Shown: positions 1,846 to 54,667, counted from the stretch's first letter. The stretch is DNA of 64,000 nt from Longimicrobiales bacterium (GCA_965218295.1 CBDCKN010000010.1:18304-82303); one strand, 5' to 3'. A program made the numbers and translations. Notes: generated from the sequence alone by a model not told the origin.

Positions 1846-3239
1846 GAGGCATGCCTGAGTTCGTTCTGCGGAGCCGGTTGAATCACCCTCTCGACAAGGT
1901 CTTCGCCTGGCATATGCGCCCAGGGGCCCTCGAGCGCCTCATTCCGCCCTGGGAGAGTGTCGAGATCCTGAAGCGCTCAGGCACGCCGGCCGACGGCGGC
2001 CGGATCCTCTTCCGGGTTCGACGCGGGCCCACCGATGTCAAGTGGGAGGTGAGGCACACCGATTTCGAGGAGGGCGTGTCGTTCCGGGATGAGCAGACTC
2101 GCGGTCCGTTCACGCGATGGGTCCACACGCACCGATTCGAGCCTACGGAGACGGGCGGGTGTCTGGTGGAGGATCACGTGGACTGGGAGCTCCCCATGGG
2201 CGTGGCCGGGCAGCTGCTCGGAGGGTCCACCGTGGAGCACGAGCTCGAGCGCCTCTTCACGTTCCGGCACCAGAGGCTGGCCAACGATCTCGACCGCATC
2301 GACCGCTACCGGGAGGACCGGACCCTGAAGGTCGGCGTGACCGGCTCTACCGGCCTCATCGGCCATGCCCTGTGCGCCATGCTCACCACGGGGGGACACC
2401 GGGTCGTCCGGCTGCGACGGGATGCAGGGGCGCTCGGCCCCGACGACGCGCTCTGGAATCCGAGTGGCGAGCCCGAGGACATGAGCAAGCTCGAGGGACT
2501 GGACGCGGTCGTGCACCTGGCTGGGGAGCCTCTGCTGGGCCTTCGATGGACCGACGAGAAGAAGAAGCGCATCTGGCGGAGCCGTGTGAAGGCGACGGAG
2601 TCGCTGGCCCGCACCCTCGCCCAGCTCAGACGGCCTCCCCGGGTGCTCGTGGCCTCCTCGGCTGTGGGGTACTACGGCGACCGGGGCAATCAGGTGCTCA
2701 CGGAGAGCTCCAAGCCCGGGAAGGGGTTTCTCGCGGAGCTCTGTAAGGCCTGGGAAGAGGCTACGCGACCGGCCGCCAGAATGGCCATTCGGGTTGTGAA
2801 CCTCCGTGCCGGCCTGGTCCTGACGCCGGCTGGAGGCGCATTGGGCACCATGCTCCTCCCCTTCAAGGTGGGGATCGGAGGTCGGCTGGGGAGCGGCCGG
2901 CAGTACGTGAGCTGGATCGATCACGATGACGTGCTGAGCTTGATCCTCCACGTGATACGCACCGACACCATACGGGGGCCCGTGAACGCCACCACACCCT
3001 ATCCCGTGCCCAACTCGACATTCACCAGCACCTTGGGCAGGGTGCTCCACCGACCGACCCTCGTGCCCGTCCCCAGCCTGGCGGTGAAGGTTCTCTTCGG
3101 GGAGATGGGCACCGAAATGTTGCTTTCGAGTGCCCGGGCGCGACCGGCCGTGGCCGAGGAGACCGGGTTCGAGTTCATATATCCCGGTTTGGAGGAGTCG
3201 TTGCGGTATCAGCTGGGCAGGGAAGTCGTCCCGCCTTGA
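1842..3239 (+). CDS. SRPBCC domain fused to TIGR01777-type NAD-dependent epimerase/oxidoreductase
   Basis: N-terminal [18 protein letters not shown] (SRPBCC), then [31 protein letters not shown]. The stop codon lies inside repeat copy A. Confidence 0.9.
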
Positions 3240-3294
3240 TCCCACGGCGCCCCGACCCTCTTGGTGTCTCGCGAACTTCGGAAACGGAACACTA
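3225..3294. repeat. MITE-like repeat, copy A (right half only)
   Basis: gtcgtcccgccttgatcccacggcgccccgaccctcttggtgtctcgcgaacttcggaaacggaacacta is nearly identical to the ends of copies C, D and E. Confidence 0.9.
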
Positions 3295-3945
3295 GCTCGC
3301 GTGCTCGAACCCGCCGTCGGGACTCAGGGGCGGGTAGGGTGCTCCTCGCTCCCGATAGTGCCGGGCCACCCTTGGATAGGCCCACTCGAAGAGGATCCGC
3401 TCGAACTCGGTCTCGTCCAGGCGAGAGGCGTCGTACATGCCGGCAGCCTGCCTCTGGCGGAAGGCCTCGAAGAGTAGGATCGCCGTGGCCACCGAGACGT
3501 TGAAGGAGTGAGCCATCCCCACCATGGGGATCACGACGTGCTCGTCAGCGAGAGCGAGCCCCTCCTCGCTGAGTCCCAGGAGCTCCGCACCCATCATGAT
3601 GGCTGTGGGCCGTGTGTAGTCGACGGCGCGGAAGTCCGTAGCGTCGGGTCCGGGGTGGGCCGCCAGTACGCGGAATCCTAGGCCCTTCAAGGTCTCCACA
3701 GCATCTCTCGTGGTGGCGTGCCGGACCACCTTGATCCACTTGGACGTGCCTGCGGACGTGTGTCCGTGGATGTCCAACCCCTCCGGTGGTGGCACCGCGT
3801 GAGCTTCCAGCACGCCCACGGCATCGCAGTTGCGTAGGATGGCCGAGAGGTTGTGGCTCTTATGGACCCGCTCCATGAGCACCGTAAGGTCCGGCTGGCG
3901 CCGGCGCAGTGCCGAAGTAAGCTTGGAAAGGCGCTCGGGGTTCAT
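3292..3945 (-). CDS. trmH: tRNA (guanosine-18-2'-O)-methyltransferase
   Basis: RRQPDLTVLMERVHKSHNLSAILRNCDAVGV; SPOUT motif IPMVGMAHSFNVSVA. Confidence 0.93.
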   Translation of the reverse strand: MNPERLSKLTSALRRRQPDLTVLMERVHKSHNLSAILRNCDAVGVLEAHAVPPPEGLDIHGHTSAGTSKWIKVVRHATTRDAVETLKGLGFRVLAAHPGPDATDFRAVDYTRPTAIMMGAELLGLSEEGLALADEHVVIPMVGMAHSFNVSVATAILLFEAFRQRQAAGMYDASRLDETEFERILFEWAYPRVARHYRERGAPYPPLSPDGGFEHAS

Positions 3946-4154
3946 CGATGGCAGGGGGTCCGGGCGGCGGGTGTCATGTCTTCGATTGCCCTCGTTGTCG
4001 GTTGCTCAATAGAATGGCGACTTGTCGTAGCCCTGACCATGGCCGACCGAGCACCGCGAAGCGGGCGTAAGTCAATCGCGAGACGTTCTAATATCCGGGA
4101 GCTGCTTGGATCGCTGGATCGCCTCGTCTCCCTCCTCGGGAGTGAACTGGAACC

Positions 4155-4844
4155 GTGAACGAATCTCGCTGGGTTGTCCCGTCAGTTTTGGGAGTGTGGC
4201 TTCTCGCCGCGACCGCGGTCGGTGCGGCCGGCCTTCTGGTCGACCTTTTACCACCGTGGCCGCAGGTCATCCTGGTTGGGCTCACGCTTCTGAGTCTCGC
4301 CTTCCTGTGGTCCGATGGACCTGTGCGCCGATGGGCAGCGCTAGTTGATGCGCGGCTATTCGTGGCCTTCCATATCACGCGATTTGTTGGCGTCTATTTC
4401 CTTGTCTTATATGGGCGAGGGCAGTTGCCGTACGAGTTCGCCGTGATCGGTGGCTGGGGTGACATCATCATCGCGACGTTGGCGGTTTTACTGATCGCGA
4501 CAGGTCCGCCGGACGGACCGCGGCGCACAGCATACTTGGTGTGGAATGCAGCCGGTCTGGCGGACATTCTCTTCGTCGTAGCGACGGCTACCCGACTTAC
4601 TCTGGCGGATCCAACATCCTTGGCTCCCATGCTGCGCCTGCCACTCAGCCTATTGATCACGTTCGTTGTGCCAATCGTCATTGCTACGCATATCTGGCTC
4701 TTTCGTCGACTGGGGAAGAGTGATGATGGCCACTCAAGCTGGTGGGCCGATGAGCATCGTGAGGGAGAGGAGGAAAATCATGAGGTTCACACCCAGCACG
4801 AGCAGCGTCAGGATCCCCCCGATGTAGCCCCCGAATTGAGCTAG
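4155..4844 (+). CDS. Hypothetical multi-pass membrane protein; 3' end uncertain
   Basis: About six hydrophobic segments, FHITRFVG and GWGDI motifs; the last ~40 codons overlap the convergent ORF. Confidence 0.65.
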   Translation: MNESRWVVPSVLGVWLLAATAVGAAGLLVDLLPPWPQVILVGLTLLSLAFLWSDGPVRRWAALVDARLFVAFHITRFVGVYFLVLYGRGQLPYEFAVIGGWGDIIIATLAVLLIATGPPDGPRRTAYLVWNAAGLADILFVVATATRLTLADPTSLAPMLRLPLSLLITFVVPIVIATHIWLFRRLGKSDDGHSSWWADEHREGEEENHEVHTQHEQRQDPPDVAPELS

Positions 4845-5368
4845 GCCGAACCACGCGAAAGCTGAAAGGACGGAGCCGATGATCCCACCCCAAGGGCCGA
4901 AGACGGCAACGAGTATCGGCGCGAAGACGAGGCATCCCACAACCGGGATATAGAGTATGACCAATTCCTGCCGATCTGTTCTGGGAGTCTCGTAGCTGTA
5001 GATGTCTTCGCCACTCTCATCGTGAGCGAATGTCATCGAGAGGGCGAGCTCCAGGACCGCCTCACGCTCATCGGTCTGGGAATTCCAAAGCAGGTGGAGC
5101 AGCTCACCCCTCCACATGTGAACCACGGCCGTCGTCTCCTCTCCCAGTTCCCACCCGCGGGGAAAGGCTGTCGGTACCAGAGTGCCATCGTCCTGTACCA
5201 GCTTGTCAGCCTTCTCGAGGAGTACCGGATCGTGGTTCCACCTCGCTATTGATTCTCCTAGTCGCTTGTCGTCTATGGAGATACGCGGGATACCGTGGGC
5301 CTCGAGCATGTCGTTTGCCGTCAGTAGCTTGGCGGCATTCCCCCAGATCAGATGCCCACCGATCCATG
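4734..5368 (-). pseudogene. Hypothetical membrane protein, probably N-terminally truncated by the IS
   Basis: The frame stays open upstream of ATG 5309 up to the IS end near 5369; C-terminal TM segments. Confidence 0.45.
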
Positions 5369-6640
5369 GCGGAACCTGTCAACGCCAGTGAGACACTCTT
5401 GGAAATCAATTAGAGAGCAATCTCCTGTGTAGTGAGGGATGGGGTGGGAGGATTGATCCAGACGGCCTCCGGGAGTGGTTTAGGCTTCGGCTCACCGGAG
5501 ACGAAGCGCTCGGGATGAGCGGCCCATGCCTCACGGAGCACGGCCTTCCTGCAGGCGATGATCCGATCGGCGTGACCGAAGTGGACCTGTTCGGGGGTCA
5601 GCATCGAGATGCCGCCATGGCGGTGCTCGGCATTATACCAACGGAAGAACGAGCGACAGAAGGTCTTGGCTTGCCCCTGATCCCCGAACCGGCCGGGAAA
5701 CGAGGGATGGTACTTCAAGGTCTTGAACTGAGCCTCGGAGAACGGATTGTCATCCGAGACCTGGGGTCGGCCCAACGAGCGGGTCACGCCGAGATCGGCG
5801 AGTAGTTGAGCCGTGCATTGGCTCGTCATCGGAGCCCCTCGATCGGAATGCAGGGTCAGGAGGTGGGGCTGGACGCCATGCTTCAAGCAACTCTGCTGGA
5901 TCAGCCGGCTGGCCAGGGCAGAGTTCTCCCGATCCGCCACCATCCATCCCACGACGTAGCGGCTGAAGATGTCCAGGATCACGTAGAGGTAGAAGTAACT
6001 CCACTTCTTCGGCCCCAGCAGCCGGGTGATATCCCAGGACCAGACCTGGTTCGGGCCCCTCGCCATCAACTCGGGCTTCTGGTATTTGGGATGACTCCGC
6101 TGCGCTCGACGCTCCTGAACCGGCACCTGGGAAGCCAGAACGCGATACATCGTACGCTCGCTGCACAGGTAGACGTCCTCGTCGAGCAGCGTCGCCACCA
6201 CCTCGGCTGGGGACCGGTCCACGAAACCGCTCCGAACACAGGGTGTCGAAAATCTTGTCCCGCTCCCTCTCACTTAAGGCCCGGGCGGGGGTCGGGCGGG
6301 GCTGCTGATGCCCGGTCGATGCACTCCGACGACGGTAGAACGTGGCTCGCGGCACCCTGAGCGCATCGCACGCGGGCTTCACCCCTACGTGCTTGGCTAG
6401 CTCCTGGGTCGCCTTCATGAGTTCGTCCCGTCCTCGAGGCTCAATCCCAGCAGCCCTGCAACTTTTCCCTGGACGTCGATGATCAAGTGCGCCTTCTGGA
6501 GCTCCTTCTCGAGGCGAGTGTTCTCGCGCTCCAGCTTGCGCACCTTCTCCTCCAGCGGATTGCGCTCGCGCTTACGGCCTCGTTTCTTCGACAGCGCTTT
6601 CAGGGACCCGCTATGCGCCGCCTTGCGCCATGTCGTCAGG
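5369..6640 (-). mobile_element. IS3-family element 1: right end, orfB and 3' part of orfA; left end missing
   Basis: orfB DDE motifs (WSWDIT, LHSDRG, DDNPFSEAQFKTLKY); orfA C-terminus LTTWRK...IIDVQGKV (6415-6640) is cut by element 2; terminus-like gcggaacctgtcaacgccagtgagacac. Confidence 0.85.
5410..6418 (-). CDS. IS3-family transposase OrfB with an apparent 1-nt frameshift near 6225
   Basis: 5750..6418 gives the N-terminus (…LCSERF) and 5410..6273 continues (FVDRSPAEVV…); extra T in a TTT run. Confidence 0.85.
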
Positions 6641-6696
6641 TGGAGTTGCCCCGATTGAGTGGACACCCAATCTCTTGAGAGAGAAAGGAGTCCACA

Positions 6697-7011
6697 GTGC
6701 CAAGAACGAGACCACCGTACGCGCCGGAGTTCCGGCGTCAAATGGTTGAGATGGTACGAGCAGGGCGGACGCCGGAGGAGCTGAGCCGGGAGTTCGAGCC
6801 GACAGCGCAGACGATCCACAACTGGGTGAGGCAAGTGGATCGGGATGAGGGCCTGAGGTCCGATGGTCTGACGAGCGATGAACGTGAAGAGGTCCGACGA
6901 CTGCGCCGAGAGGTCAAACAGCTGAAGGTCGAGCGGGAGATCCTAAAAAAAGCCGCAGCCTGGTTCGCGCGGGAGACCGACTCGGTGCCACCGAAGCATT
7001 CGAGTTCGTGA
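6697..7011 (+). CDS. IS3 OrfA (HTH)
   Basis: YAPEFRRQMVEMVRAG…EREILKKAAAWFA. Confidence 0.92.
   Translation: MPRTRPPYAPEFRRQMVEMVRAGRTPEELSREFEPTAQTIHNWVRQVDRDEGLRSDGLTSDEREEVRRLRREVKQLKVEREILKKAAAWFARETDSVPPKHSSS
6945..6952 (+). other. -1 programmed ribosomal frameshift site (A7G)
   Basis: AAAAAAAG near the orfA end; the -1 frame is open into orfB, as is typical of IS3. Confidence 0.8.
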
Positions 7012-7856
7012 GCACGCATCAGGCGACGTATCCAGTGCGGACGATGTGCCGAGTGCTGGGAGTCTCCCCCAGCGGCTACTACGCGTGGCGAGCTCGTCCG
7101 CGGTCGGCGAGAGCACGGGCCAACGAGCGACTGCTCGAGCGGATCCGAGAGATCCATAAGTTATCCGATGAGACGTACGGCTCGCCGCGGATCCACGCGG
7201 AGCTCCAGGACGAGGGACAGAGTGTGGGTCTGAACCGTGTTTCGCGGTTGATGCGGCGTGGGGGTCTGGTGGGTGTGACGAGACGACGGAAGTGGCGGAC
7301 GACGAAGCGCGACAAGGACGCCCGTCCGGCGCCGGATCTGGTACAGCGTGACTTCGCGGCCGAGGGGCCGGATCAACTCTGGGTGGCCGACATCACGTAT
7401 GTGCCAACCGGGAGTGGGTTCTTGTACCTAGCGGTTGTCGTGGACGCGTGGAGCCGTCGCGTGGTCGGCTGGTCTATGGAGAACCACCTGAGGACGGACC
7501 TGGTCGTCAGAGCACTGAACATGGCGCTGTTGCAGCGCCGGCCTGCGGATGTGATCCATCACTCAGACCAGGGTACGCAGTACACATCGATCGCGTTCGG
7601 ACTCCGGTGCAAGCACGTGGGAGTTCGGCCCTCGATGGGCTCGGTGGGCGACTGCTACGACAACGCGCTCTGCGAGAGCTTCTTCGCCACGCTCGAGTGC
7701 GAGCTGATCGAACGCAGGCGCTTCGCGAATCGTGTGGAGGCGAAGATGGCGGTCTTCCGCTTCATCGAGAGCTGGTACAACCCGCGACGCCGGCACTCAG
7801 CGCTGGGCTACAAGTCGCCGGTCAACTTCGAAGTGAAGCACTCGGAGGCAGCGTGA
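7008..7856 (+). CDS. IS3 OrfB DDE transposase
   Basis: WVADITY, HHSDQGTQY, DNALCESFF, YNPRRRHSALGY. Confidence 0.95.
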   Translation: MSTHQATYPVRTMCRVLGVSPSGYYAWRARPRSARARANERLLERIREIHKLSDETYGSPRIHAELQDEGQSVGLNRVSRLMRRGGLVGVTRRRKWRTTKRDKDARPAPDLVQRDFAAEGPDQLWVADITYVPTGSGFLYLAVVVDAWSRRVVGWSMENHLRTDLVVRALNMALLQRRPADVIHHSDQGTQYTSIAFGLRCKHVGVRPSMGSVGDCYDNALCESFFATLECELIERRRFANRVEAKMAVFRFIESWYNPRRRHSALGYKSPVNFEVKHSEAA

Positions 7857-7954
7857 ACCCTTCGGGCCTTCAGGCTGCCGTGGTGCTTCCAACCTTGGCG
7901 GATCTCGGCTGCCTTCCACTCCCCTGCGCCTCTGGCGCAGCGGAAGCTTCTGAC

Positions 7955-9331
7955 GAGCTAGGATCAAAGGGTGTGTAAAAAGAGAGGCGACGTACCTTTC
8001 CGCTGAGTAATAACCAGCGAACTCCGGGTGACAGCCCGGGGGAAAGGAACGACGCCTCGTGAGGAAGAATACGGTGGGACCCGAGGGTGAGTCCAGGACG
8101 CCCGTGTGGGAAGTTCTGGAAGAAGTGGTTCGGGAGAAGGCGCAGGAGTTCATTCAACAGATCTTGGAGGAGGAAGTCACGGAGTTGCTAGGGCGAGAGA
8201 AGTCAGAGCGCAGGAGGGTGGTGGACGCGACCGAGGCTACCGCAACGGATACGGCAAGCCGAGGCGGCTGGCGATGAGCTCGGGCACGATCACACTCCGA
8301 CGCCCTCGAGTTCGAGGCCTTGAGGAGCGGTTCGAGAGCCGCGTGCTGCCGTTGTTCGCGAGGCGGACGAAGGAGCTGGGCGCTCTGCTTCCGGAGCTGT
8401 ATCTGCACGGACTGGCGGAGGGAGACTTCGAGTTGGCGATGCGGGGCCTGCTGGGCGAGGGGGCACCGCTGTCGAAGTCTTCGATTCGGCGGCTGCGGGC
8501 GGGATGGACGGCGGAGTTCGAGGAATGGAGCCAGCGTCGCCTGGAGGGTCGTGAGGTCGTCTACGTGTGGGCGGACGGGATCTATGTGAAGGCAGGGCTG
8601 GAGCGGGACAAAGCGGCGCTGCTGGTGGTGCTGGGTGCCATGCGAGACGGGACGAAAGAGGTGTTGGCCCTGAGAGCGGGCTACCGAGAGTCGGTCGAGT
8701 CCTGGTCCGAGGTGTTGCGGGACCTGAAGGCACGCGGCATCGAGGCGCCCCGGCTTCTGATGGCGGACGGTAACGCTGCGATCTGGGGCGCAGTACGGCA
8801 GGTATGGCCTGAGGCGGGTGAGCAACGGTGCTGGAACCACAAGATGAGGAACGTGCTGGACCGACTACCTCAGCGGGAGCAGGGCGAGGCGAAGGATCTT
8901 CTCCGGGCCGTGGTCTACGCACCGAGCCGGGCCGAGGCCCTGAAGGCCCGCGAGGTGTTCGCCCGACGCTATAGGCCGTGGTATCCGAAAGCAGTGGACG
9001 TACTCGAGGACGACTGGGAGCGGATGGTAGCGTTCTACGACTTCCCCGAGGACCACTGGAAGCATCTACGCACGACGAACGTGGTCGAGAGCCCGTTCGC
9101 CGCGGTACGGCTCAGGACGACAGCAGCGAAGCGGTTCAAGCGGGTCGAGAGCGCTACGGCGCTAATCTGGAAGTTGCTCTTGGTGGCTGAGAAGCGGTTC
9201 CGAAGGCTCGACGCTCCTCACCTCCTCAAGGACGTATTTGAAGGAAGAAAGTTCGAAGACGGAAAGCCCGTCTCACACCAACAGCGGAAGAACGCCGCCT
9301 AATACGTTTACACACCTATTGACCCAACCTC
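7955..9331 (+). mobile_element. IS256-family element without target-site duplication
   Basis: IRs gagctaggatcaaagggtgtgtaaa and the reverse complement of tttacacacctattgacccaacctc match at 20/25; the flanks differ. Confidence 0.9.
8059..9302 (+). CDS. IS256 (Mutator-type) transposase, frameshift near 8235
   Basis: GYRNGY, YVWADGIY, QRCWNHK, HLRTTNVVES; the N-terminus is in ORF 8059..8277. Confidence 0.9.
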
Positions 9332-9494
9332 GTGTGGTGTCCCAGAAGTGTCTCGGCCATTCGAGCACCGATGCATCCGGCTCTGCGGCGTTCCTTCTCC
9401 TCGAAATAGCGTTGCTATTCCTCGTCGTCGCGCCTTGCAGGATCCGGCGCCTCGGCACTCTCGGTGGCTCGCGAACTTCTGGGACACCACACTA
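9332..9494. repeat. MITE-like repeat, copy B (divergent, full length)
   Basis: Perfect 18-bp TIR gtgtggtgtcccagaagt/acttctgggacaccacac; shares aagtgtctcggcca and ggtggctcgcgaactt with copies C and D. Confidence 0.85.
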
Positions 9495-10853
9495 GCCGAG
9501 CTCCTCGTAGAGGTAGGCCAGAGTCCGGATGCCCTTCTCGATGTGCTCCTCCGGGAACCATTCGTTGGGCGCGTGCAGATTGGCTCCCGGAAGGGAGAAG
9601 CCGAGGAGTAGGGCGGGGGCGTCGAGGATTCGCTCGAACTCTCCCACAATGGGTATGCTTCCGCCCTCGCCGGCCAGGACCGGTGCCGCCCCGAACGCCT
9701 TCATCAAGGCCGTCGTGGCGGCCTCCTTGAGACTCTCGCTCAGCTGGGCCCGCCAGGGCATGCCGCCGGGTAGCTCCTCGATCCGGACCGTCACGCCGGC
9801 AGGAGTGACCTTGGCGACATGTGCTTGCAGTAGCTCGTAAACGCGCCTGGGATTCTGGTCCGCCACCAGGCGGAAGCTCACCTTGGCCATGGCCTTGCCC
9901 GGGAGCACTGTCTTCGCCCCCTCGCCAGTGTAACCCGAGAGCAGCCCGTTCACTTCGCAGGTAGGCCGGGTCCAGAGCCTTTCGGGGACCGAGTACCCGC
10001 TCTCACCACCCGCAAGGGTAGCTCCGACCGACTCGGCGAACTCCTCCTCGTCGAAGGGCAGGCTCCCGATGGCGTCCCGAGTTTCGGCGTCCCATTCGAG
10101 AACGTCGTCGTAGAAGCCCTCGATGGTGATGCGGCCTTCGTCGTCGAACAGGGTAGCCAGGATCTGTGCCAGCGCCATGGCGGGGTTCACGACAGGACCG
10201 CCGTAGGCGCCGGAGTGCAAGTCGCTGGACGGTCCGTCCACGTGGATCTCGCAGTAGGCGAGGCCCCGCAGCGAAAAGAGGAGAGAGGGAAGCCCCGGGG
10301 CGAACATCGCCGTATCAGAGATGACGACGGTGTCGCACGCCAACCGGTCCCTGTTCGCCTCGACGAAGGGCACCAGGTTGGGCGAGCCCACCTCTTCCTC
10401 GCCTTCGGCCAGGATGATGAGGTTCACCGGGAGTCCGCCTCCGGCCTTCAGATGCGCCTCAGCCGCCTTCACATGAAGGTAGAGCTGACCCTTGTCGTCG
10501 GCCGAGCCACGGGCGTAGAGGCGGCTCTCCCGGAACTCCGGCTCGAAAGGCGGAGACTCCCAGAGCTCCAGTGGCTCGGGAGGCTGCACGTCGTAGTGAC
10601 CGTATACAAGGACTGTGGGGGCGTCGTCACCGGCACCCCGCCACTCCCCCAGCACTATCGGATGACCGGCCGTATCGATGACCTCGGCCTGAAGACCGGC
10701 GTCTATCAGCTTCGCCTGCAGCCACTCGGCGGCTCAGCGGGTGTCGGCGTTGTGGTCCGACTTGGCGCTTATGGAAGGGATCCGTAGAAAGTCGAAGATC
10801 TCGTCTGTAAAGCGCTGCAGTTCTTCTCCGATGTACTTCTGAACGTCACTCAT
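9492..10853 (-). CDS. M20-family dipeptidase (CNDP/DapE-like), frameshift near 10735
   Basis: YGHYDVQP, ARGSADDKGQ, EGEEEVGS, HAPNE; N-terminus MSDVQKYIG…FLRIPSIS is in another frame. Confidence 0.9.
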
Positions 10854-10942
10854 GCTCGATGTTCTTGAAAAGGGGTATACGAAGAGGCGCCGGCCTGCGG
10901 GCCGCCGCCTCTTGCATGTCCAACACCTGGCCGTGCTACCGA

Positions 10943-11221: not shown

Positions 11222-11480
11222 TGGTCACCGTTTGGGGTCAAGCGTGGTCTCGATGTCAAAGGCCGAAGCCTCAGGAAGGGGAATCTAAATGATCCGCCGA
11301 TTGGCGCCACCGGCAGGACCCCAGCTGAACCTAGCCGAGGCGTCAGTCGGCCGTTGCCGCGATGCGGCCTAGGAGTCGACCGCCGAGACGAGCGAGCGTT
11401 AGCGAGCTCAATTGTGGCCCTCTGCCTCACCCCATACGGATCTCATTGTGCCCCGGGGCCCGCGGGTCTACGGTTGGATC

Positions 11481-11990: not shown

Positions 11991-12003
11991 CAGCCTTCTG
12001 GTC

Positions 12004-12692: not shown

Positions 12693-12876
12693 TAGTGCCC
12701 CGCTTCCAAAGTGTCTCGGCCAGTCGAGGGCACGGTGCATCCGTGTGCTCGGCGTTGGGACTCCTTGCGACCACGCTTCGCGCGGTACCTGCTATTGCTA
12801 CGCCGCGTCGTCCCGCCTTGATCCCACGGCGCCCCGACCCTCTTGGTGGCTCGCGAACTTCGCAAACGGCACACTA
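12693..12876. repeat. MITE-like repeat, copy C (full length, 180 bp plus TA flanks)
   Basis: ta|gtgccccgcttccaaagt…acttcgcaaacggcacac|ta; near-identical to copy D except a longer centre. Confidence 0.92.
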
Positions 12877-13545
12877 ATTGAGGAAGGGCTCGATCCTCTG
12901 GGCGAATGAGTTCCTGGCACGATGCAGCCGGCTCTTCACGGTTCCGAGGTTGACGCCGGTGATCTGGGCGATCTCCTCGTAGCTCTTTCCCTCGAGCTCA
13001 CGGAGCCTGAACACCAACCGGTGGTGCTCCGGCAACTCCTCGACTGTGTCCTCGACGAGGCGTCTCAGGAATCGCTTCCGGTAGAGGTCGTCGGGCTTCA
13101 TGCGGAAGTCCTCGAACTGAAGGGGCCGGTGGTCGTCGTCCCAATTGCCGGTGAGCCGCTGGAAGAGAATGAGAGGACTGCGCGATCGGTTGCGCAGCTC
13201 GTTCTTGGCGAGGTTACTGGCGATGGTGTAGACCCACGTAGAGAACTTCTTCGTCGTGTCGAACCGATGGAGGTGTCGGGTCACGCGAATGAAGGCCTCC
13301 TGAACGAGATCCTGGGCCCTGTCGCCGTCGCCGGTCTTGCGGGTGACGAAGTGGACGAGGCGATCGTGATAGCGCTCGTAAAGGTCTTCGAAGGCGCCGT
13401 TTCGGCCCTGGAGGTGAGCGGTGACCAGATCTTCGTCACTGAGTTGAGCGAGAGGTTCCTCCAAGACGTGCGGCGCTAACTGCTCGTCTATGTTCGACTT
13501 TACCATGTGGTGTTCCAGTGAGGTACGGCCGTCGGTGAGAGTCAT
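12874..13545 (-). CDS. ECF RNA polymerase sigma factor (RpoE/SigW-like)
   Basis: Region 2 AQDLVQEAF…FSTWVYTIASN; region 4 LRELEGKSYEEIA…GTVKSRLHRAR. Confidence 0.95.
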   Translation of the reverse strand: MTLTDGRTSLEHHMVKSNIDEQLAPHVLEEPLAQLSDEDLVTAHLQGRNGAFEDLYERYHDRLVHFVTRKTGDGDRAQDLVQEAFIRVTRHLHRFDTTKKFSTWVYTIASNLAKNELRNRSRSPLILFQRLTGNWDDDHRPLQFEDFRMKPDDLYRKRFLRRLVEDTVEELPEHHRLVFRLRELEGKSYEEIAQITGVNLGTVKSRLHRARNSFAQRIEPFLN

Positions 13546-17718: not shown

Positions 17719-18099
17719 ATGCCGCCACGGGAGCGCCTGAGCCCGAAGAAGACCGTGGTGGGTGAGCGCGGCCTTACCCTCAGTGCCGGCCAGCGCCAGC
17801 GCGTAGCCATCGCTCGGGTCATCCTGGAGCGCCCCAAGGTCCTGATCCTGGATGAGGCGTCGAGCAGCCTCGACGCGGAGAGCGAAGCGCTGGTGCAGCA
17901 CGCTCTCGAGCACCTCATGGAGGGGCTCACGACCCTGGTCATCGCCCACCGCCTGTCGACGGTGATACGGGCGGACCGAATCCTGGTGCTGGACCGGGGC
18001 ACCATCGTGGACCAGGGCTCGCACCGGGAGCTCCTCGAGAGGAGTGACGTCTACGACCGCCTGTATCGGCGACAGTCCAGCGACGCCCTGGTGTTCTGA
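17719..18099 (+). pseudogene. C-terminal fragment of an MsbA-like ABC ATPase
   Basis: [37 protein letters not shown]; no Walker A and no TM domain. Confidence 0.8.
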
Positions 18100-18102: not shown

Positions 18103-18268
18103 TAGTGTCCCGTTACCAAAGTGTCTCGGCCAGTCGAGGGCACGGTGCATCCGCGGGCTCGGCGTTGGGACTCCTTACCGTAGCTTGCGCTACGCCGCGT
18201 CGTCCCGCCTTGATCCCACGGCGCCCCGGCCCTCTTGGTGGCTCGCGAACTTCGGAAACGGAACACTA
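18103..18268. repeat. MITE-like repeat, copy D (full length, 162 bp plus TA flanks)
   Basis: ta|gtgtcccgttaccaaagt…acttcggaaacggaacac|ta; central hairpin gtagc-ttgc-gctac. Confidence 0.92.
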
Positions 18269-20227
18269 TCCCGTCGGTGCCGGCTCCGGTGAGTCCGCCG
18301 GTGCGGGTTGCACCGGGGGTGCCACGGGCGCCACAGGGGTGGTGGTGGCCGGTTCCTCGGATGGAATCCAGTCTTCCTTCACCAGCCCCTCTTCCACCCA
18401 GGCGAACATCCCTTCCATCGTCTGTTGTGCCACCTTGTACGTGGCGGCGTCGTTGTTCGAGAACAGGCGATCGAAGCGGTCCCTGATCCGGGCTCTGGCC
18501 TGACGGCAGAAGAGGTCCGCTAACGTGTACGGCGACCGGTCCGACGGACTCGCCCTCACGAGGCTCTGGGCCCGCACGACCGTGGAGACCATCACGAACA
18601 GCTCGGAGCCGATCTCGACGATCCTCCCGAGAACCGCCTGCTTTCGCTCGAGGCCAGGGCCGAAGCGAGCCATGGCGTAGAAGATCGATCTCGCCAGCCG
18701 TGCCGAGGTTCTGTGGGCGTACCTCAGGTGGCCTGCCAAGGGACCGAACTCCCGATACCGGGGCCACCGGCCCCAGGTGAGCCAGCGGCTGGGATACCAC
18801 CAGGCGTAGTGGACGCCCGCCCGGATCAAGGCGGCGAAGCGCTTCCCCATGGGTGCCTTGGGATTGATCAAGTCGCCGGCCACGCTCAGGTGGCTGTCTA
18901 CGGCCTCCCGGGCGATGAAGAGGTGCATGATCTCGCTGGATCCCTCGAAGATGAGGTTGATCCTGCTGTCCCGGAGCGCGCGCTCGATGGGGTAAGGATG
19001 TTCCCCACGTGCGCGAAGGGAGTCGGCCTGCTCATACCCCCGCCCGCCCCGGATCTGCACGGCGTCATCGATGACCTGATAGCTGGTCTCACTGTTCCAC
19101 ATCTTCGCAATGGCTGCCTCGATACGAATGTCGAAGCCTTTGGCGTCGGCCATGCGGGCGGTCAGGTCGACGACGGCGTCGAGGGCGAACGTATTGGCGG
19201 CCATGGTGCCGAGTTTCTGGGCGATGGCATCGTGCTTGCCCACGGCCGCTCCCCACTGGACGCGCTCGGCTGCCCACTGCCGGCACGACAGGAGCGCTCC
19301 CTTTGCTCCCACGGCGCAGAACGCCGGAATGGACAACCGTCCCGTATTCAGGGTGATGAGAGCCAGCTTGAGCCCTCGACCCTCTTCCCAAAGCAGGTTT
19401 TCCCTGGGGACTTTGACGTTGTTGAAGCGGATCACGCCGTTGGATAGGCCGTTGAGGCCCAGGAACGTGCAGACGTGTCCGACCTCGACGCCTTCCCACG
19501 CCGTCTCGACGATCAGTGCGCTGATAGGCTTTCGCCCCCGTACGCCCTCCCGCGCCGGGGTCCGTACCATGACAACGATGATGTCCGCCCGCGGTCCGTT
19601 GGTGCACCAGAGCTTCTCGCCATTCAGAATCCAGTGCTTGCCGTCCTCCGAGAGCTCCGCCGTGGTGGACAGGTTTGCCGGGTCTGAACCGACGTCCTGC
19701 TCCGTCAGCGCGAAGGCCGACAGCTCTCCCGCCGCGAGCCGTGGGAGGTATTTCCTCTTCTGCTCCTCGGTGCCGAAGTAGATCAGCGGCTGCGGGACGC
19801 CGATGGACTGATGCGCGGACAGGAACGCACCCGTCGAGCCGCACCGGCTGGCGACGATGCCGAGAGCCTTGTTGTAGTGATACTGCGAGAGCCCGAGACC
19901 ACCGTACTCCTGGGGGATCTTGATGCCGAAGGCGCCGAGCTCCGCCAGGCCATCCAGAACCTCCTGGGGAACCCATCGATCGCGGTCGATGGCATCGCCG
20001 TCGATGTGGGCGATCGTGAACTCTTCCAGCGCCTTCAGGAACGGCTTGGCTCTGGCCTCCAGCTCAGGACTCGGCTCGGGCGGCGGATATACCACATGAA
20101 GGTCTAGCCGGCCGTCGAACAGCCCCCGGGCGAAGCTCCGGTTCTTCCACTCCGTTTCTCGTGCGGCCTCGGCGACCTGCCGTGCTTCCTGTACGCTGGC
20201 CAGGGCCTTGTGGGGCTCCTGCGACAT
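18266..20227 (-). CDS. Acyl-CoA dehydrogenase (long ACAD9/VLCAD-like)
   Basis: AFALTEQDVGSD, LNGEKLWCTNG, LNTGRL, IFEGSSEI. Confidence 0.95.
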   Translation of the reverse strand: MSQEPHKALASVQEARQVAEAARETEWKNRSFARGLFDGRLDLHVVYPPPEPSPELEARAKPFLKALEEFTIAHIDGDAIDRDRWVPQEVLDGLAELGAFGIKIPQEYGGLGLSQYHYNKALGIVASRCGSTGAFLSAHQSIGVPQPLIYFGTEEQKRKYLPRLAAGELSAFALTEQDVGSDPANLSTTAELSEDGKHWILNGEKLWCTNGPRADIIVVMVRTPAREGVRGRKPISALIVETAWEGVEVGHVCTFLGLNGLSNGVIRFNNVKVPRENLLWEEGRGLKLALITLNTGRLSIPAFCAVGAKGALLSCRQWAAERVQWGAAVGKHDAIAQKLGTMAANTFALDAVVDLTARMADAKGFDIRIEAAIAKMWNSETSYQVIDDAVQIRGGRGYEQADSLRARGEHPYPIERALRDSRINLIFEGSSEIMHLFIAREAVDSHLSVAGDLINPKAPMGKRFAALIRAGVHYAWWYPSRWLTWGRWPRYREFGPLAGHLRYAHRTSARLARSIFYAMARFGPGLERKQAVLGRIVEIGSELFVMVSTVVRAQSLVRASPSDRSPYTLADLFCRQARARIRDRFDRLFSNNDAATYKVAQQTMEGMFAWVEEGLVKEDWIPSEEPATTTPVAPVAPPVQPAPADSPEPAPTG

Positions 20228-27176: not shown

Positions 27177-27182
27177 CGGACA

Positions 27183-47875: not shown

Positions 47876-47921
47876 GGGCCCGCGCTTCAGGTGGTGTTCG
47901 TAGAACCGCATCTGAGGCCCG

Positions 47922-48530
47922 CTACGAAATCAGCAGGGTGATCGTCAGGCTGGCCCCCTCGAGATCGTCTGCGACCACCGTGGGCAGATCCTGGACTCCG
48001 AGAACCAGTCGATACCCGGCCGCGAATCCGAGGTAAAGTCGCCCCACGGTGTGAACGCGCAGGTGGACCTCGGGCTCCAGGACCAGGAAGTTGTCCGCTC
48101 CGAGCTCGTTGCCCACGGGCACCGCCCGCACCTCCGCATTTCCGGCGCCGAGAAGGAAGCGTCCGGCCAGCGAGACGGTGTGGTCGGTCCGAGACTCGTA
48201 TCCGAATAACAGGCCTCCGTACCCCATGCGCAGGTCGGTACCCAGGTCGGAGCTGGACTCAACTGCGGGCACGGCCTTCAGCAAGCCTCCTCCGGCCGCC
48301 CCGATGGAAAAGTGTTGGGAGAAGTGGAGAGAGGCCTCGCCCCCCAGCATCGCCTCCGTTCCCCCTCTGATTCTCGCGCCGCGAAAGAAAGCGCCGATGG
48401 AGGCCCTGACGGCGTCCGTGGACGCACCTTCGTCAGGGCCCTGAGCGTGAAGGCGGCCGGGTAGAGGTGACACCAGCGCAAGAAGAAGCCCCCCCGCGAC
48501 CAGAGGGTGTTCCAGACGGAATGCCTTGCG
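47922..48530 (-). CDS. Hypothetical exported protein, possible small beta-barrel; start uncertain
   Basis: Signal-like segment ending LHAQ, amphipathic strands (MGYGGL, FLVLEPE, GYRLV). Confidence 0.55.
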   Translation of the reverse strand, partial: RKAFRLEHPLVAGGLLLALVSPLPGRLHAQGPDEGASTDAVRASIGAFFRGARIRGGTEAMLGGEASLHFSQHFSIGAAGGGLLKAVPAVESSSDLGTDLRMGYGGLLFGYESRTDHTVSLAGRFLLGAGNAEVRAVPVGNELGADNFLVLEPEVHLRVHTVGRLYLGFAAGYRLVLGVQDLPTVVADDLEGASLTITLLIS

Positions 48531-48710
48531 GGGTATGGGGATCTCCTCGTTCCGCCCTGGGATCGAACGGTACTTGAATCGGTCGAAACAAGGTATACTT
48601 CCCGTCCTCCCACGGAACAGGGCACACCCGTCCGCCTCGTATCGCAGAAAATGGTTGAGAAGTGGGCCACACCGTGGCAATGTTTAAGTAACGCATTGGA
48701 AGACAGATAC

Positions 48711-49217
48711 TTGGGGTCTACGAGAGACAATGGCCTGTGGAGGAGGGGTGACCACGAGGCGAGCCTAGGCTTCACGTTGCTCGAGCTGGTGGTCGTCATG
48801 CTTCTCCTATCACTCTCGCTCGCGGCGGCGGCGGGGGTGTTTTCGGCTTATCAGGCTCGTACGGCCGCTCAGCGAGCGGCCCAGGTCTTTGCACTGGACA
48901 TCGGGCTCGCGAGGACGATGGCAGTGAGAAGTCGAGAGACCGTGGTCATCGACTTCGACGAGTCGCAGGTGACTTACCTGGTCCGGTCCGAGTCCGGCGA
49001 TACGATAGTGAAGCGGGAGTTCAGCCAGACGGACGAAATCTGGCTCGACTCCATCGACCTTCAGCTGACTGGAGACAGCTTGGTCTTCAATTCGCGTGGC
49101 GTGGGTGACTTGACCGGTGTCGGCTCGTCTTTGGGCGTGGCCCGGTTCTTCGCCGGCGACACGGGATACGATGTGTCCTTCAACGGCATGGGGGCCTCAA
49201 AGGTCGACAAACGTTGA
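48711..49217 (+). CDS. Prepilin-like protein (FimT/GspH-like); start uncertain
   Basis: G|FTLLELVVV, ARTMAV, FNSRG. Confidence 0.8.
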   Translation: MGSTRDNGLWRRGDHEASLGFTLLELVVVMLLLSLSLAAAAGVFSAYQARTAAQRAAQVFALDIGLARTMAVRSRETVVIDFDESQVTYLVRSESGDTIVKREFSQTDEIWLDSIDLQLTGDSLVFNSRGVGDLTGVGSSLGVARFFAGDTGYDVSFNGMGASKVDKR

Positions 49218-49606
49218 CTACACGGCGTCGCAGGTGCCTGCGCGCCCCCGCAGGCGGCTTCACCCTGATCGAGGTCATCGGAGCACTGGTGATCTTCTCG
49301 GTCGGAGTGCTCATGGTCATGAACCTGACGGGAACGCTGTCCCTTCGGATGGAGGCGGCGGCGATCCGGTCGGAGCTTGCCGTTCGGGGGCAGGAGCGGC
49401 TGGACAGTCTGGAGATTCTGGACTACGACACGCTGACTGTTGGGACGACTTTCACTACCACCGAGGTTCGGGGATCGAGTTTCTATTGGCTGGTAACGGT
49501 AACGGATTCGACGGCGTTGGCCCGGCACCTCAAGGTGTGGCTGCTCCCTTCCAGCGGATCGGGCCCGTCCTTCACGGGGTCGACCTTCGTCATCCGATCC
49601 TGGTAG
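49214..49606 (+). CDS. Prepilin-like protein (PilV-like)
   Basis: G|FTLIEVIGALVIFSVG. Confidence 0.85.
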   Translation: MTTRRRRCLRAPAGGFTLIEVIGALVIFSVGVLMVMNLTGTLSLRMEAAAIRSELAVRGQERLDSLEILDYDTLTVGTTFTTTEVRGSSFYWLVTVTDSTALARHLKVWLLPSSGSGPSFTGSTFVIRSW

Positions 49607-49866
49607 GCTCACGGAACACTCGCGGCTTCACCTTCCTCGAAGCGATTCTGGCCCTCACGCTGTCCTCCCTCATCGTGGCCCTCGTGGCATCGGTGTTCTG
49701 GGCCCAGAACGACTTCTACGCCCTGGTGGTGGAGCGGGCGAAGGTGCACGACAACCTCCGGGTCGTGTCGGACCTCATCGCTTCGGAGATTCGGGGTGTC
49801 TCGGGTGGGGGGGTTACGACCGCCCAATCCCGCCAGTTCGTCGTCCGCCTGCCGTTGGCCATGTGA
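49600..49866 (+). pseudogene. Prepilin-like protein (PilW-like) truncated by IS481
   Basis: G|FTFLEAILAL; the frame ends at the IS terminus. Confidence 0.75.
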
Positions 49867-51165
49867 ACAGCGCACCTGATGGTTGACACAATGGTGCCAG
49901 CTGATGGTTAACAGATTGGGTTACGTCCTGTGTTGCCGTGGGTGTCGAAAATGACGAAGAGTTCTTCGTCAAACCACCCGAGGGTAATGGGTCCGAAGTA
50001 GATTTGCCACAGAGCGGGACCGATGGGTTCGAGCCCGATGAACTCGTTGCCGAGCGCCGAGCTGATGTTGATCCAACGCGAGTGCCAGCGGATGCCTCCG
50101 TTCGTAGAGACCTTACGGACCTCGAAGTGCTCGGGGTATTCGATAGGCGGAAGGACATCGGGGTAGGCTCTAAGAGCCGATCGGTAGACTGAATCGGGCG
50201 TCGCATCGTCGAGCGCCTCATGCGGCCGGATGGAATTGAAGGTGCGGCGGAAGTGGTTGAAGTGACGCTGCTGGGCACGGAGGTTGGCCTTCGGCGGCCG
50301 AGTGGCTTCGCGCTTGAGGGTTCGGTGCATGCGTTCGTGACGGCCATTCTGCTGCGGCTTACCAGGCTCGATGGTCTCAGGACGGATGCCGAGCCGGATC
50401 CACCAAGCGCTGAGGCGTGTGAGCCGAGCGAGGCCGATGGAAGCGAAGGGCGTGCCGTTGTCGGAGCGGATGACGGCGGGAACGCCGAACTCACGGAAGA
50501 CCTTGATGAATACGGGCTTGGCGAGCTCGATCGACGTGGAGTACAGCCCTCTGCACTCGAGCAGGAATCGGCTGAAACCGTCCTGGATGGTAAGGGGATA
50601 GCAGTAGCGGCCGTTGAGCATCTTGAACTGGCCTTTGAAGTCGACCGTCCAGACCGCATTGGGCTCGTCCATGGGGGTGAGTGGCTTACCGGGATGGCCC
50701 GGCTTACCGGAGCGTCGGCGCTTCTTCGTGATCAGGTCGTGACGCTCGAAGATACGGTCGATCGTCCTGCGAGCTGGTGCCTCGCCGAACTTCTCAGCTG
50801 TGAGTTTACGGATCTTGCGTGATCCCCACCCGTAGCGCTGACGCAGATCCACGACGTGTTCCACGACACCTTCCGCTACGGCATGCGGGCAGTGGTGGGG
50901 CCGGTGAGAGCGGTCGTGGAGTCCCTCGAATCCCTCCGCGAGGAACCGTGTCCACCACTTGTATCCGGCGGCCTTGCTGATGCTGTAGCGCCTACAGGAC
51001 TCGGCGAAACTGAAGGTGCGTTGCTGAACTTCGAGGATGAAACGTACTCTTTGCTCGTACATGGTCGACTGGTTCCAGTCCATCGGGCTCTCCTTGTTGC
51101 AGAACCCTGGTTGATAGGAACCTGTCAACCATCAGTGTAGGCCATTGTGTAAACCATCAGCTGCC
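49862..51165 (-). mobile_element. IS481-family element; one terminus apparently incomplete
   Basis: TGT end at 49862; paired TGTNAACCATCAG boxes at both ends (49876-49913 inverted; 51123-51160). Confidence 0.85.
49908..51083 (-). CDS. IS481 transposase (HTH plus rve)
   Basis: WTVDFKG, IRSDNG, PQQNGRHERMHRTLK, RPHEAL. Confidence 0.93.
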   Translation of the reverse strand: MDWNQSTMYEQRVRFILEVQQRTFSFAESCRRYSISKAAGYKWWTRFLAEGFEGLHDRSHRPHHCPHAVAEGVVEHVVDLRQRYGWGSRKIRKLTAEKFGEAPARRTIDRIFERHDLITKKRRRSGKPGHPGKPLTPMDEPNAVWTVDFKGQFKMLNGRYCYPLTIQDGFSRFLLECRGLYSTSIELAKPVFIKVFREFGVPAVIRSDNGTPFASIGLARLTRLSAWWIRLGIRPETIEPGKPQQNGRHERMHRTLKREATRPPKANLRAQQRHFNHFRRTFNSIRPHEALDDATPDSVYRSALRAYPDVLPPIEYPEHFEVRKVSTNGGIRWHSRWINISSALGNEFIGLEPIGPALWQIYFGPITLGWFDEELFVIFDTHGNTGRNPIC

Positions 51166-52133
51166 GCTCAGGAGCTGGCTTCTCCGCCCCCTCTTTTCAC
51201 GTCCAACGAGCTCCTGGAGCTCACCCTGGCTGCCGACTTCGACAAGCTCAAGGGAGATCGCAAGGAGGACAGCGAGTATCGCCCCGGCGTCCTGACCGTG
51301 ACGGCGGACGACGGCTCCATGCGGGAGATCGAGCTCAAGGTGCGAACGCGCGGCAAATTCAGGCTAAAGAGATGCCGCTTCCCTCCGCTACGCGTCAACC
51401 TGCCGAAGAATTCCCTGGGGGGGACCGTGTTCGACGGGCAGAACAAGATCAAGCTCGTGACCCACTGCCGGGACCGGGACGGCGACGAGCAGAACGTGCT
51501 CGAGGAGTACCTGGTCTATCGGACCTACAATGTCATCACCGACCAGAGCTTCCGGGTGCGCCTGGCGCGAATCACCTACGTGGACACCAGCGGTGATGAC
51601 GATCCCGTGACGCGCTACGCGTTCTTCCTCGAGGAGGAGGACGCCATCGCCGAGCGCCTGGGGGGAATAATCCTCCAGGTGAAACAGGTCCACCCCCGCC
51701 ACCTGAGTGCCCGCGAATCGGCTCGCATGGCAGTGTTCCAGTACATGGTGGGGAATACCGACTGGTCCATGATCTACTTCCACACGTGGAGCTGTTGAGG
51801 ACTGCCGAGAACGTCCACATTCCGGTGCCGTACGACTTCGACTGGGCGGGGTTCGTCTCACCGTCGTATGCCAAGCCCGACGCCAGCCTCGACATCCGGA
51901 CGGTCCGGCAGAGGCTCTACCGAGGTTTCTGCCGACCGGACGTGGATTTTCCGGACGTCTACTCGGAGTTCGAAGAACTCCGGCCCGAGTTCGAAGCGCT
52001 CTACACGGAGATGGAGGGGCTCGAGGAGGACAAGATCGAGGATGCCTTGGAGTACACCGAGGAATTCTACGAGGTCATCTCCTCCGAGAGCCGCGCACGG
52101 CGTCGCATCGAAGAGGCCTGTCGCCGGACTTAG
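51161..52133 (+). pseudogene. Conserved hypothetical with CotH/kinase-like motifs; N-terminus lost at the IS, frameshift near 51785
   Basis: RTRGKFR..C.FPPL, KLVTHC, EYLVYR, YMVGNTDWS…H(N)V…PYDFD. Confidence 0.65.
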
Positions 52134-52546
52134 TTCTTCTTCCGTCCGGCGTTCGGGTGCTTGAGGTGCTTCCACGTATCGCCGCGGCGGACAGCCAGGA
52201 TCGTGCTGGGGGAGACGTCTAGGAGCTGAGCCCAGTGGCCAGCTGCGTGTCCCCAGTATCCCTTCTTCTCGTCCCAGTCTTCCAGCACGCTCTTCACGTC
52301 TTCCTCCTTGAGAAGGGCATGAGGAGATTTCTCACCTTGCAGCCACGGGTTGTCGGGCCAGCGACGGCGACGCTGAAGCGGTCCAGGAGCCTTCGCGCCG
52401 GAGTGCCCGAGGCAATAGTGCCGGATCTGACTGGCGGTATACTCGGGGTGAGCTTTGGCGATGTCTGTGTAGAAGTAGCCTTCTTCGGCCAGGTCTCTCC
52501 ACTTGACGATCAAAGGTAGAGCGGGCTTAGCCATAGTCGGGTCCAT
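52130..52546 (-). CDS. Small protein with tandem HTH-like modules
   Basis: YTDIAK…ASQIRHYCLG and GEKSPHALLKEEDV…VSPSTILAVRRGDTWKH. Confidence 0.65.
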   Translation of the reverse strand: MDPTMAKPALPLIVKWRDLAEEGYFYTDIAKAHPEYTASQIRHYCLGHSGAKAPGPLQRRRRWPDNPWLQGEKSPHALLKEEDVKSVLEDWDEKKGYWGHAAGHWAQLLDVSPSTILAVRRGDTWKHLKHPNAGRKKN

Positions 52547-52949
52547 CCGAGATTAAACGTCTATGAAATTGAGGCCCCCGCAAAAAAAGCCCGCGGGCCA
52601 TCCCTAAACCCCATGAGTGTCGGCACGTGCAGCCTAGACCTTTGCACCGACGCTCGGTTGATCGACGGGATTGTGAATGCATCGCTACGAGGCGGAAACA
52701 ATTTGCATGCCGCACGGGCGAGGCCGAAAAGCACTGGCTTGGCGCCTCAGCGAAGCCTTCCGGTGTGTATTATTCCTGGATCCACTTCCCACTTTGGCAC
52801 GAACGTGTGGTGGGGATTATGAATGCACTATAACATAAAATCTACCAGCTTTCAGGTACACCCGCCCTCGTGGCCGTGTTCGGGGGTGGAAGAAGGCGTC
52901 TTGGCGGGTCGTGTGGGTCCCAGTCCACCCTGCACGGGGAGCTATCGGA

Positions 52950-54437
52950 GTGTCACGATTTCCGTTCGTGAGGGCCACGATGCTCGGTTTGACTGCCTCG
53001 GCTCCGTTGGTGCTGGCGTGCTCGAGCTCCGACGACGGAATCGGTCCCGGCACCCCCCTCCAGATTCGGTCTGTCACTCCGACGCCCAACACTATCTCCG
53101 TAGGCGCTTCCGATGGCTTGGTCGTGGAGTTCGACCGACCACTCGATGCGGCCACCGTGTCGCCTGACGACGTCCGGGTGTTCGGTCGGTGGTCCGGCGT
53201 ATTGGCGGGCTCTGTGACCCTGGCGGACGGGGATCGCGCGCTTCGGTTCTCCCCCTCGAGGTCCCTCTCGGCAGGGGAGTGGGTGACGGCGACCATTCCG
53301 ACGGGGTCCGTGCGCGCCTTGGACGGTGCCGAGCTGGAACGGGGGCACACCTGGACGTTCTGGGTATCGGTCACACCCACCTCGATGACCCTCGATCACG
53401 TGAGCACGCTCGACGTGCGACGCCCCGGTGAACAGCGCATCCAGACCTATGGCGCCTACGCGGGGGATCTGGACGGCGACGGCTGGTCCGACCTGATCCT
53501 GCCCAACGAGGAGTCCGACGACCTACGGGTCTTTATGAACGACGGGACCGGGGGGTATGGCCCCTTCACCGTAGTGCCGATCCCCGAGGCCAACCAGCCG
53601 AGCACGAACGAAGGGGCCGACTTCGACGGGGACGGTGACATCGACTTTGCCGTGGGGAGCGCCCAGGGTAGCTATGTGGCCATCTTCCACGGCGATGGGG
53701 CCGGCGGCCTCGTGCACCGGCAGAATCTGGAGGCTGGAGCCGAGGTTCGTGGAGTCTGCCTTCTCGACTTCGAGAACGACGGAGACCCGGACATCGCGGC
53801 CGCGACGCGCGATGGGAACCACGTAGCTCTGTTCGAGAACGACGGATCCGGGATCTTCAGCTCGCGGGGCACCTTCGAGGCAGGGGACGGGGAGTGGTCC
53901 TGCGCCACGGGAGACCTCAATGAGGACGGTCTAATGGACCTCGTGATCGGGTCACGGTTGAGCCTCGACATTGCGGCCTTCGTGTCCAACGGGGACGGGA
54001 CCTTCACCGAAGGGGACCGGATACCGACCGGTGGAGACCCCTGGATGCTGGCGGGCGGCGACCTCAATGGGGACGGGCACGTGGACTTCGCCGCCGTGAA
54101 GGCATCCGAGGGGACCCTGGCGGTATACGTCGGAGATGGAGAGGGCGGCTTGACGCTGGACCAGAACTATTTCCTGGGCGTGTTTCCCCTCGCAATAGAC
54201 CTGGGTGACCTGGACGGAGACGGCGACCTGGACGCCGTCTCGTCCCACCTCGGGTCGGGACGCTTCGAGGTCCACGAAAACCTGGGGGATGGCTTCTTGT
54301 CCCGCCTTCCGATCTCGCTTACGGCTCCGACCGCGGCCTCATGCGCGATCCTCCACGACCGTGACAACGACGGAGATCTGGACGTCAGCGGGATCGACGA
54401 GGTGGACGATCTCCTGATCCTCTTCGAGAATCGATGA
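52950..54437 (+). CDS. Lipoprotein with Ig-like domain and FG-GAP/VCBS repeats
   Basis: Lipobox LVLA|C; repeated GDLDGDG/DFDGDGD motifs. Confidence 0.88.
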   Translation: MSRFPFVRATMLGLTASAPLVLACSSSDDGIGPGTPLQIRSVTPTPNTISVGASDGLVVEFDRPLDAATVSPDDVRVFGRWSGVLAGSVTLADGDRALRFSPSRSLSAGEWVTATIPTGSVRALDGAELERGHTWTFWVSVTPTSMTLDHVSTLDVRRPGEQRIQTYGAYAGDLDGDGWSDLILPNEESDDLRVFMNDGTGGYGPFTVVPIPEANQPSTNEGADFDGDGDIDFAVGSAQGSYVAIFHGDGAGGLVHRQNLEAGAEVRGVCLLDFENDGDPDIAAATRDGNHVALFENDGSGIFSSRGTFEAGDGEWSCATGDLNEDGLMDLVIGSRLSLDIAAFVSNGDGTFTEGDRIPTGGDPWMLAGGDLNGDGHVDFAAVKASEGTLAVYVGDGEGGLTLDQNYFLGVFPLAIDLGDLDGDGDLDAVSSHLGSGRFEVHENLGDGFLSRLPISLTAPTAASCAILHDRDNDGDLDVSGIDEVDDLLILFENR

Positions 54438-54581
54438 CCAGGAGGCGCCTATACTTGGACTCCTCCGGCATGGGCTTCAACGGCCGGTACCTGTACACGC
54501 GGATATCATACCGCCCGTAAGCGCGTGAAAGCAGGCTCGGCCGTTACCGGCTGAGGCGAGGGGGCGTCCCGAGAGGGGCCC

Positions 54582-54667
54582 GCTTGCGCTACGCCGCATC
54601 GTCCCGCCTTGATCCAACGACGCCCCGACCCTCTTGGTGGCTCGCGAATTTCGGCAACGGAACACTA
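54582..54667. repeat. MITE-like repeat, copy E (right half only)
   Basis: gcttgcgctacgccgcatcgtcccgccttgatcc…gaatttcggcaacggaacacta matches the end of copy D. Confidence 0.9.

Follow-up and report, generated by a model that had tools for sequence, protein, structure and literature searches.

A TA-duplicating miniature element with a conserved hairpin core and an excess of copies at stop codons in a Longimicrobiales genome

Several short bacterial repeats resemble the element described here. RUP of Streptococcus pneumoniae is TA-flanked and bounded by terminal inverted repeats (TIRs), and its mobilisation by IS630-Spn1 was inferred from TIR similarity (PMC2229807). ERIC (IRU, RU-1) carries the motifs AAGGCG and AACGC on either side of an inner hairpin (PMC2759123, Table 1a), and the insertion sequence (IS) IS870 is reported to form its own stop codon through its CTAG target (PMC13630536). 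Of 58 coding sequences overlapped by BOX of S. pneumoniae, 36 take their stop from it, and the enrichment of repeats between convergent genes is read as tolerance (PMC3049150). Here, we analyze a stretch of 64,000 nucleotides from a Longimicrobiales bacterium (GCA_965218295.1, CBDCKN010000010.1:18304-82303; hereafter the window, with positions counted from its first letter), in which five copies of a miniature inverted-repeat transposable element (MITE) each supply the stop codon of a gene.

A sequence check confirmed the five copies, A to E, at 3225-3294, 9332-9494, 12693-12876, 18103-18268 and 54582-54667. As proposed in the original prediction, the right-end C and the flanking TA constitute a minus-strand TAG in all five cases, each terminating an annotated open reading frame (ORF). 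Family matches support these minus-strand genes, which encode TrmH, a dipeptidase, an ECF sigma factor, an acyl-CoA dehydrogenase and an MFS transporter, respectively. The 5/5 score exceeds the genome-wide rate per right end (41/109; p about 0.008 for 5/5).

The host genome (G000; assembly 90.7% complete) was surveyed by BLAST and end-motif scans, and genes were called with our own dicodon model, which yielded 3,320 genes and 84% coding sequence. The census comprised 125 copies or fragments of 30-300 bp, 73 with two ends, 36 with the right end only and 16 with the left end only, a few long elements being split into two entries. TA flanks both sides of 60 of the 73 two-ended copies, at CTAG (30), TTAG (12), GTAG (4) or other (14) targets. 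The prediction that every copy provides a stop did not hold at this scale, where only 45/73 two-ended copies do so, at the left end in 20, the right end in 31 and both ends in 6. The excess at stops is nonetheless genome-wide: 42 of the 60 intact TA-flanked copies lie on stops, where non-coding TA sites matched for 4-mer would predict 12.5, and none of 200,000 draws reached 42. Against a background restricted to sites no more than 30 nt downstream of a stop, the count was 42/48, with 31.9 expected (P=0.0006). Removal of the element leaves TAG (36) or TAA (11) at 47 of 48 stop ends, and these are therefore native stops rather than truncations. About one third of the intact TA-flanked copies lie off stops. 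TAG accounts for 1,066 of the 3,320 called stops (32%) in this 65% GC genome.

The fixed orientation that had been proposed was likewise not found, since over all entries the stop lay at the left end only in 20 and at the right end only in 35 (p=0.058). Element orientation is linked to GC skew (80/125, p=0.002) and shows no link with local gene strand (68/125, p=0.37). This helps to explain why the window copies all point one way, in the orientation common to all six copies on that contig.

Two congeneric genomes, G001 and G002 (about 96% identical), allowed us to inspect orthologous sites. The expectation that empty sites contain a single TA was borne out for copies C and D: site D is empty with one TA in both congeners, and site C is empty in G001 (single TA, TAG stop) and occupied in G002. 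The empty allele of the sigma gene in G001 reads TAG and not the predicted TAA. Site B is empty in G002, with a single CTAG in which an upstream plus-strand reading frame also appears to end; at this TA, G001 carries a copy of subfamily 1. The comparison was also reversed. Twenty-five G001 and G002 insertions were mapped to apparently empty G000 sites, and 14 were dropped by hand owing to element remnants in G000, the lack of TA on both sides, a poor junction or, in one case, duplication. Seven of the 11 clean sites are stops called in element-free sequence. No usable empty-allele joint was found among the matches listed from DNA runs. At three sites shared by G000 and G001 (L033, L036 and L037), the insertion of about 180 bp found in G001 is only about 60 bp long in G000; internal deletions therefore arise in place.

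An IS630-like transposase with matching ends had been anticipated, and an intact IS630 was found in G001, as well as in G002 and in a further genome, G011. The end of the G001 IS630 matches the left end of the MITE at 19/25 positions (subfamily 2) or 17/25 (subfamily 1), and the right end more weakly (11-15 of 25). The similarity is confined to about 25 nt of the end, and the interiors show none. IS630 and MITE ends are also alike in Solimonas. The closely related IS630 of G011 (94% identical) served as a control. All 23 of its copies duplicate the TA in CTAG, and yet only 3 are on stops, with 16 intergenic and 4 coding, while the other CTAG sites in their flanks are distributed 7 stop : 31 intergenic : 14 coding. 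The stop share of the MITE differs from that of this IS630 (Fisher p=4e-5). Since the IS enters CTAG in 23/23 cases and is on stops in only 3/23, a CTAG preference is insufficient for the bias; the word explains the possibility of docking at stops, not its frequency.

The ends of the element regenerate its target, which offers a possible route for swapping termini. Elements were indeed seen in contact: in G011 an IS630 abuts a MITE end (L007, 1483-1652), and elsewhere MITEs sit in each other's terminal TA (G000 contig C17, 25497-25838; L028, 3623 onward).

What lies between the ends is conserved. An exact core pattern matched at least 103 stretches, and 40 of these were aligned with 3 others (43 sequences). 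Full aligned elements are about 160 bp long, with stems that covary in 31/40 pairs and a mean TIR identity of 49%. Within the core, both sides change in 14/20 pairs, and pairing amounts to 91.7%, compared to 68.5% when shuffled. The purine-rich strand of the core forms a helix in which single pairs alternate with 2x2 positions, each occupied by Watson-Crick pairs or by tandem G·A. Two of these 2x2 positions switch between the two states: among the 43 sequences, Watson-Crick outnumbers tandem G·A by 27 to 9 at one and is outnumbered by 24 to 7 at the other. The purine strand is predicted to fold better than its complement in 42/43 sequences as RNA and in 37/43 as DNA. This helix favours a single-stranded form, and the core probably acts as single-stranded RNA or DNA. 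Among RNA-run contigs, which cover small shares of the runs, pieces of the element were present and none bridged the element and an adjoining gene.

The original prediction viewed the element as stand-alone and missed its relatives. Records with the core pattern come from Gemmatimonadota, Polyangiales, Sandaracinaceae, delta proteobacteria and Gammaproteobacteria, as well as Nitrospirae, Anaerolineales, Thermoanaerobaculia and Binatia. With covariance models, the family was detected in 16/101 genomes of the host phylum, in 18/41 genomes of the family of a further host, G138, and in 42/151 genomes of the Solimonas class. The element belongs to a family that spans several phyla and in which the core is conserved while the ends are exchanged. 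One G138 subfamily shares its 16-nt termini, without a mismatch, with a co-resident IS1182-family element, and another duplicates TGA (7/8 cleanly). All eight copies of the latter are on TGA stops of 191-499-codon ORFs, in a single orientation, against a background of 35/69 non-coding or stop sites in a 200-kb sample (p=0.004). The CTAG-type subfamilies of G138 (27 classified of 31) include 12 stop, 13 intergenic and 2 coding copies, a modest stop enrichment (12/25 vs a background of 15/51, p=0.04), and a 238-bp Thiodiazotropha-type variant with TNA duplications has none of 15 copies on long-ORF stops. A search for PF01609 in five genomes found no partner of the TGA-duplicating and ACCTA-ended variants. 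A gammaproteobacterial element (L332) carries ERIC-like termini around the family core. Further elements of 63-274 bp with other termini occur in G000 itself (C13:354076, C15:6810, C15:169211, C17:86194 and C3:355531); four of the five have a diverged core and three have an end on a stop. A fragment at the start of contig C13, considered as the end of an autonomous element, was rejected as a duplicate of the start of C11. C13 and C11 share their first 544 bp (positions 1-544 of both) without a difference, an assembly overlap.

We consider it probable that the element is a TA-duplicating MITE mobilised by IS630, docked at stops through tolerance or retention, with a conserved hairpin core that is associated elsewhere with borrowed ends. 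The original description of a non-autonomous, IS630-type element whose terminal G regenerates TAG is supported by the empty sites and the IS630 ends. According to this model, IS630-family transposases would mobilise a gene-less miniature transposon, likely acting in trans. The element enters C-TA-G-like sites and duplicates the TA, its terminal G restores TAG, and the stop of a gene that ends at the site is thereby preserved. The share of copies on stops is about three times that predicted from the target word; tolerance or retention of such copies is most likely the cause of the excess, as the simplest one remaining. Between the ends, the strand-specific hairpin core would probably act as single-stranded RNA or DNA. 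In related elements elsewhere, this core is combined with termini that belong to different transposase families.

Several observations weigh against this interpretation. G000 itself yielded no intact IS630, and TIR identity to IS630 is partial, being lowest at the right end of subfamily 1 (11-13 of 25). Selection alone should have enriched older copies on stops, and no such age trend was seen, the divergence of stop and non-stop copies being alike (19 full-length copies, p=0.64). The IS630 control was drawn from a different genome, G011, where genes were called with a model trained on G000. The gene calls throughout rest on our own dicodon model, and promoters and genes that it missed are counted as 'intergenic'. 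Part of the invariance of the CAAGG and AACG core motifs is built in, as sequences were collected with the exact pattern or with models derived from sequences so collected.

Stop docking could instead be a pure by-product of targeting a rare word, CTAG, which outside genes is often a stop: half of the G000 targets are CTAG, and of the 1,236 CTAG sites in G000 that are non-coding or lie on stops, 337 are stops. The modest enrichment of the CTAG-type subfamilies in G138 and the absence of the Thiodiazotropha-type variant from long-ORF stops agree with this. We regard it as unlikely, however, since the excess persists after conditioning on the 4-mer (42 against 12.5), since CTAG targets taken alone have 20 of 30 copies on stops and non-CTAG targets 22 of 30, and since the G011 IS630 follows availability whereas the MITE does not. 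About equally improbable, if marginally less so, is active targeting, in which the single-stranded core would steer insertion to gene ends with any transposase, for instance by way of a factor tied to the termination of transcription or translation. The four least diverged full-length copies, presumably the youngest, are already on stops; the TGA-duplicating variant of G138 is on TGA stops without exception and in one orientation; the stop at site B holds a copy of one subfamily in G000 and of the other in G001; and the core is strand-specific. On the other hand, gene-relative orientation varies by lineage (a mild bias to the right in G000, left without exception in G138), about one third of the intact copies lie off stops, one variant with the same core has no stop bias, and no targeting factor was identified.

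The strand-specific hairpin also recalls REPINs, which consist of two short REPs in inverted orientation and have no fixed target duplication. In that case an HUH (Y1/RAYT) tyrosine transposase would recognise the hairpin and move the element, and both the link of orientation to GC skew and the free covariation of the TIRs across taxa would suit such a mechanism. HUH transposition does not usually make target duplications, whereas here TA or TNA duplications are clean and the TIRs match those of co-resident DDE insertion sequences. Y1/RAYT (PF01797) was found in none of five genomes searched (G000, G001, G002, G005 and G011). With the fixed TA duplication and the 160-bp unit, this largely refutes a REPIN/RAYT origin for this genus, and we give it very little credence. 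A broader proposal is less unlikely, though still improbable: a multi-phylum superfamily related to ERIC, defined by its single-stranded tandem G·A core rather than by its ends and borrowing termini of IS630, IS1182 or TNA-duplicating type from unrelated transposases, in which the core would actively steer or retain copies at TAG and TGA stops.

The individual copies in the window, all on the plus strand, differ in completeness. Copy A is a right-end remnant of subfamily 1 with flanking TA and forms the TAG of trmH (3292-3945, minus). Its left junction is a 10-nt microhomology; as its first 10 nt also match host DNA and G002 has no TA at the site, copy A is without empty-site backing, and no clean empty allele was found for it. 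Copy B is a full 161-bp element followed by TA, and its right end gives the dipeptidase gene (9492-10655, minus) its TAG. It represents a second subfamily with TIRs unlike those of subfamily 1, and on the left, next to an IS256 (8106-9302), it has no TA. The conserved core of copy B lies at 9375-9451 on the minus strand, as a purine-rich tandem G·A helix in which CAAGG and AACG both occur. Copies C and D belong to subfamily 1 and have TA on both sides, as originally noted. Copy C is 180 bp long with an 18-bp apical insert and gives the TAG of the sigma gene (12874-13545, minus); copy D is 162 bp long, gives the TAG of the dehydrogenase gene (18266-20227, minus), and has its conserved core at 18149-18226 (minus strand). 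Copy E, a subfamily 1 right-end remnant with TA, provides the TAG of the MFS gene (ending at 54665, minus), and G002 has only a shorter right-end remnant at this site, with the same stop. TIRs of about 18 bp had been attributed to the full copies; identity over 20 nt is 18 for B, and only 13 for C and 15 for D. Folded as minus strands, D and B are predicted to form long rods (z = -8.7 and -9.8). Near-identical subfamily 1 copies are present in records named Longimicrobiales (L094, L116 and L179), which makes this order probable for the host as well.

Positions 3871-9302 hold a cluster of multi-copy insertion sequences, of which the IS256 adjoining copy B is the last. In G001 and G002 the dipeptidase stop is preceded by a gene that the window lacks. 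At 17719-18099, convergent with copy D, an MsbA-like ABC transporter is represented in the gene calls by no more than its C-terminal 126 aa. The MFS transporter (54665-55979) is spread over two overlapping frames, which may reflect an assembly indel, and its Tet-type MFS matches are weak and far below the cut-off.

MITEs are usually seen as deletion derivatives of a single IS whose interior is disposable. In this family it is the interior that is conserved, and the ends are swapped, even between transposase families inside one genome (G138). The excess at stops, which the related IS630 lacks, offers a clean way to test targeting against selection. It also places a long, predicted structured RNA immediately after the stops of dozens of host genes per genome.

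Compared with known systems, the element matches no Rfam family: no hit reached the gathering score in the window, and none of seven sub-threshold matches, in six loci, is on the element. No description of the family or of its four core motifs was found in the literature searched, a search in which most subscription journals were outside coverage. CTAG-ended repeats also include CIR, RIME and BRU-RS; the comparison covered RUP, Correia, NEMIS, IS870, BOX and ERIC. RUP, Correia and NEMIS are similar in being short, TIR-bounded and TA-flanked, with a long RNA hairpin and mobilisation in trans inferred from IS630 TIRs. Unlike RUP and Correia, the element is GC-rich, docks strongly at stops, has a core that is not IS630-derived and is common to several phyla. 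IS870 shares the CTAG target and the TAG at the junction. The same holds for the G001 IS630, whose transposase stop is the terminal TAG made with the target. In IS870 the junction ends the ORF of the IS itself, whereas the MITE junction ends host genes, a bias that the related IS630 of G011 does not display. BOX is modular (boxA/B/C) and is likened here by stop encoding, not by sequence. ERIC, for which deleted and insert-bearing forms are known, has TA ends, a long hairpin and, in the E. coli copies compared and the published table, the AAGGCG ... AACGC pair around an inner hairpin; it measures 127 bp, compared to about 161 bp for our element. Our full-length model (R1) gave 1.9 bits on one E. 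coli ERIC copy, which was not detected, so that no sequence or structure match spans the 127 bp, while the core model (R2) matched 1/4 copies weakly (15.4 bits, E 0.0027). If the ERIC link holds, an old repeat of unknown mobility would join a family with identifiable partner transposases, and its mechanism would thereby become testable. TA-flanked MITEs and repeats that encode host stops were already known; the family described here, with its conserved core and exchangeable ends, joins them.

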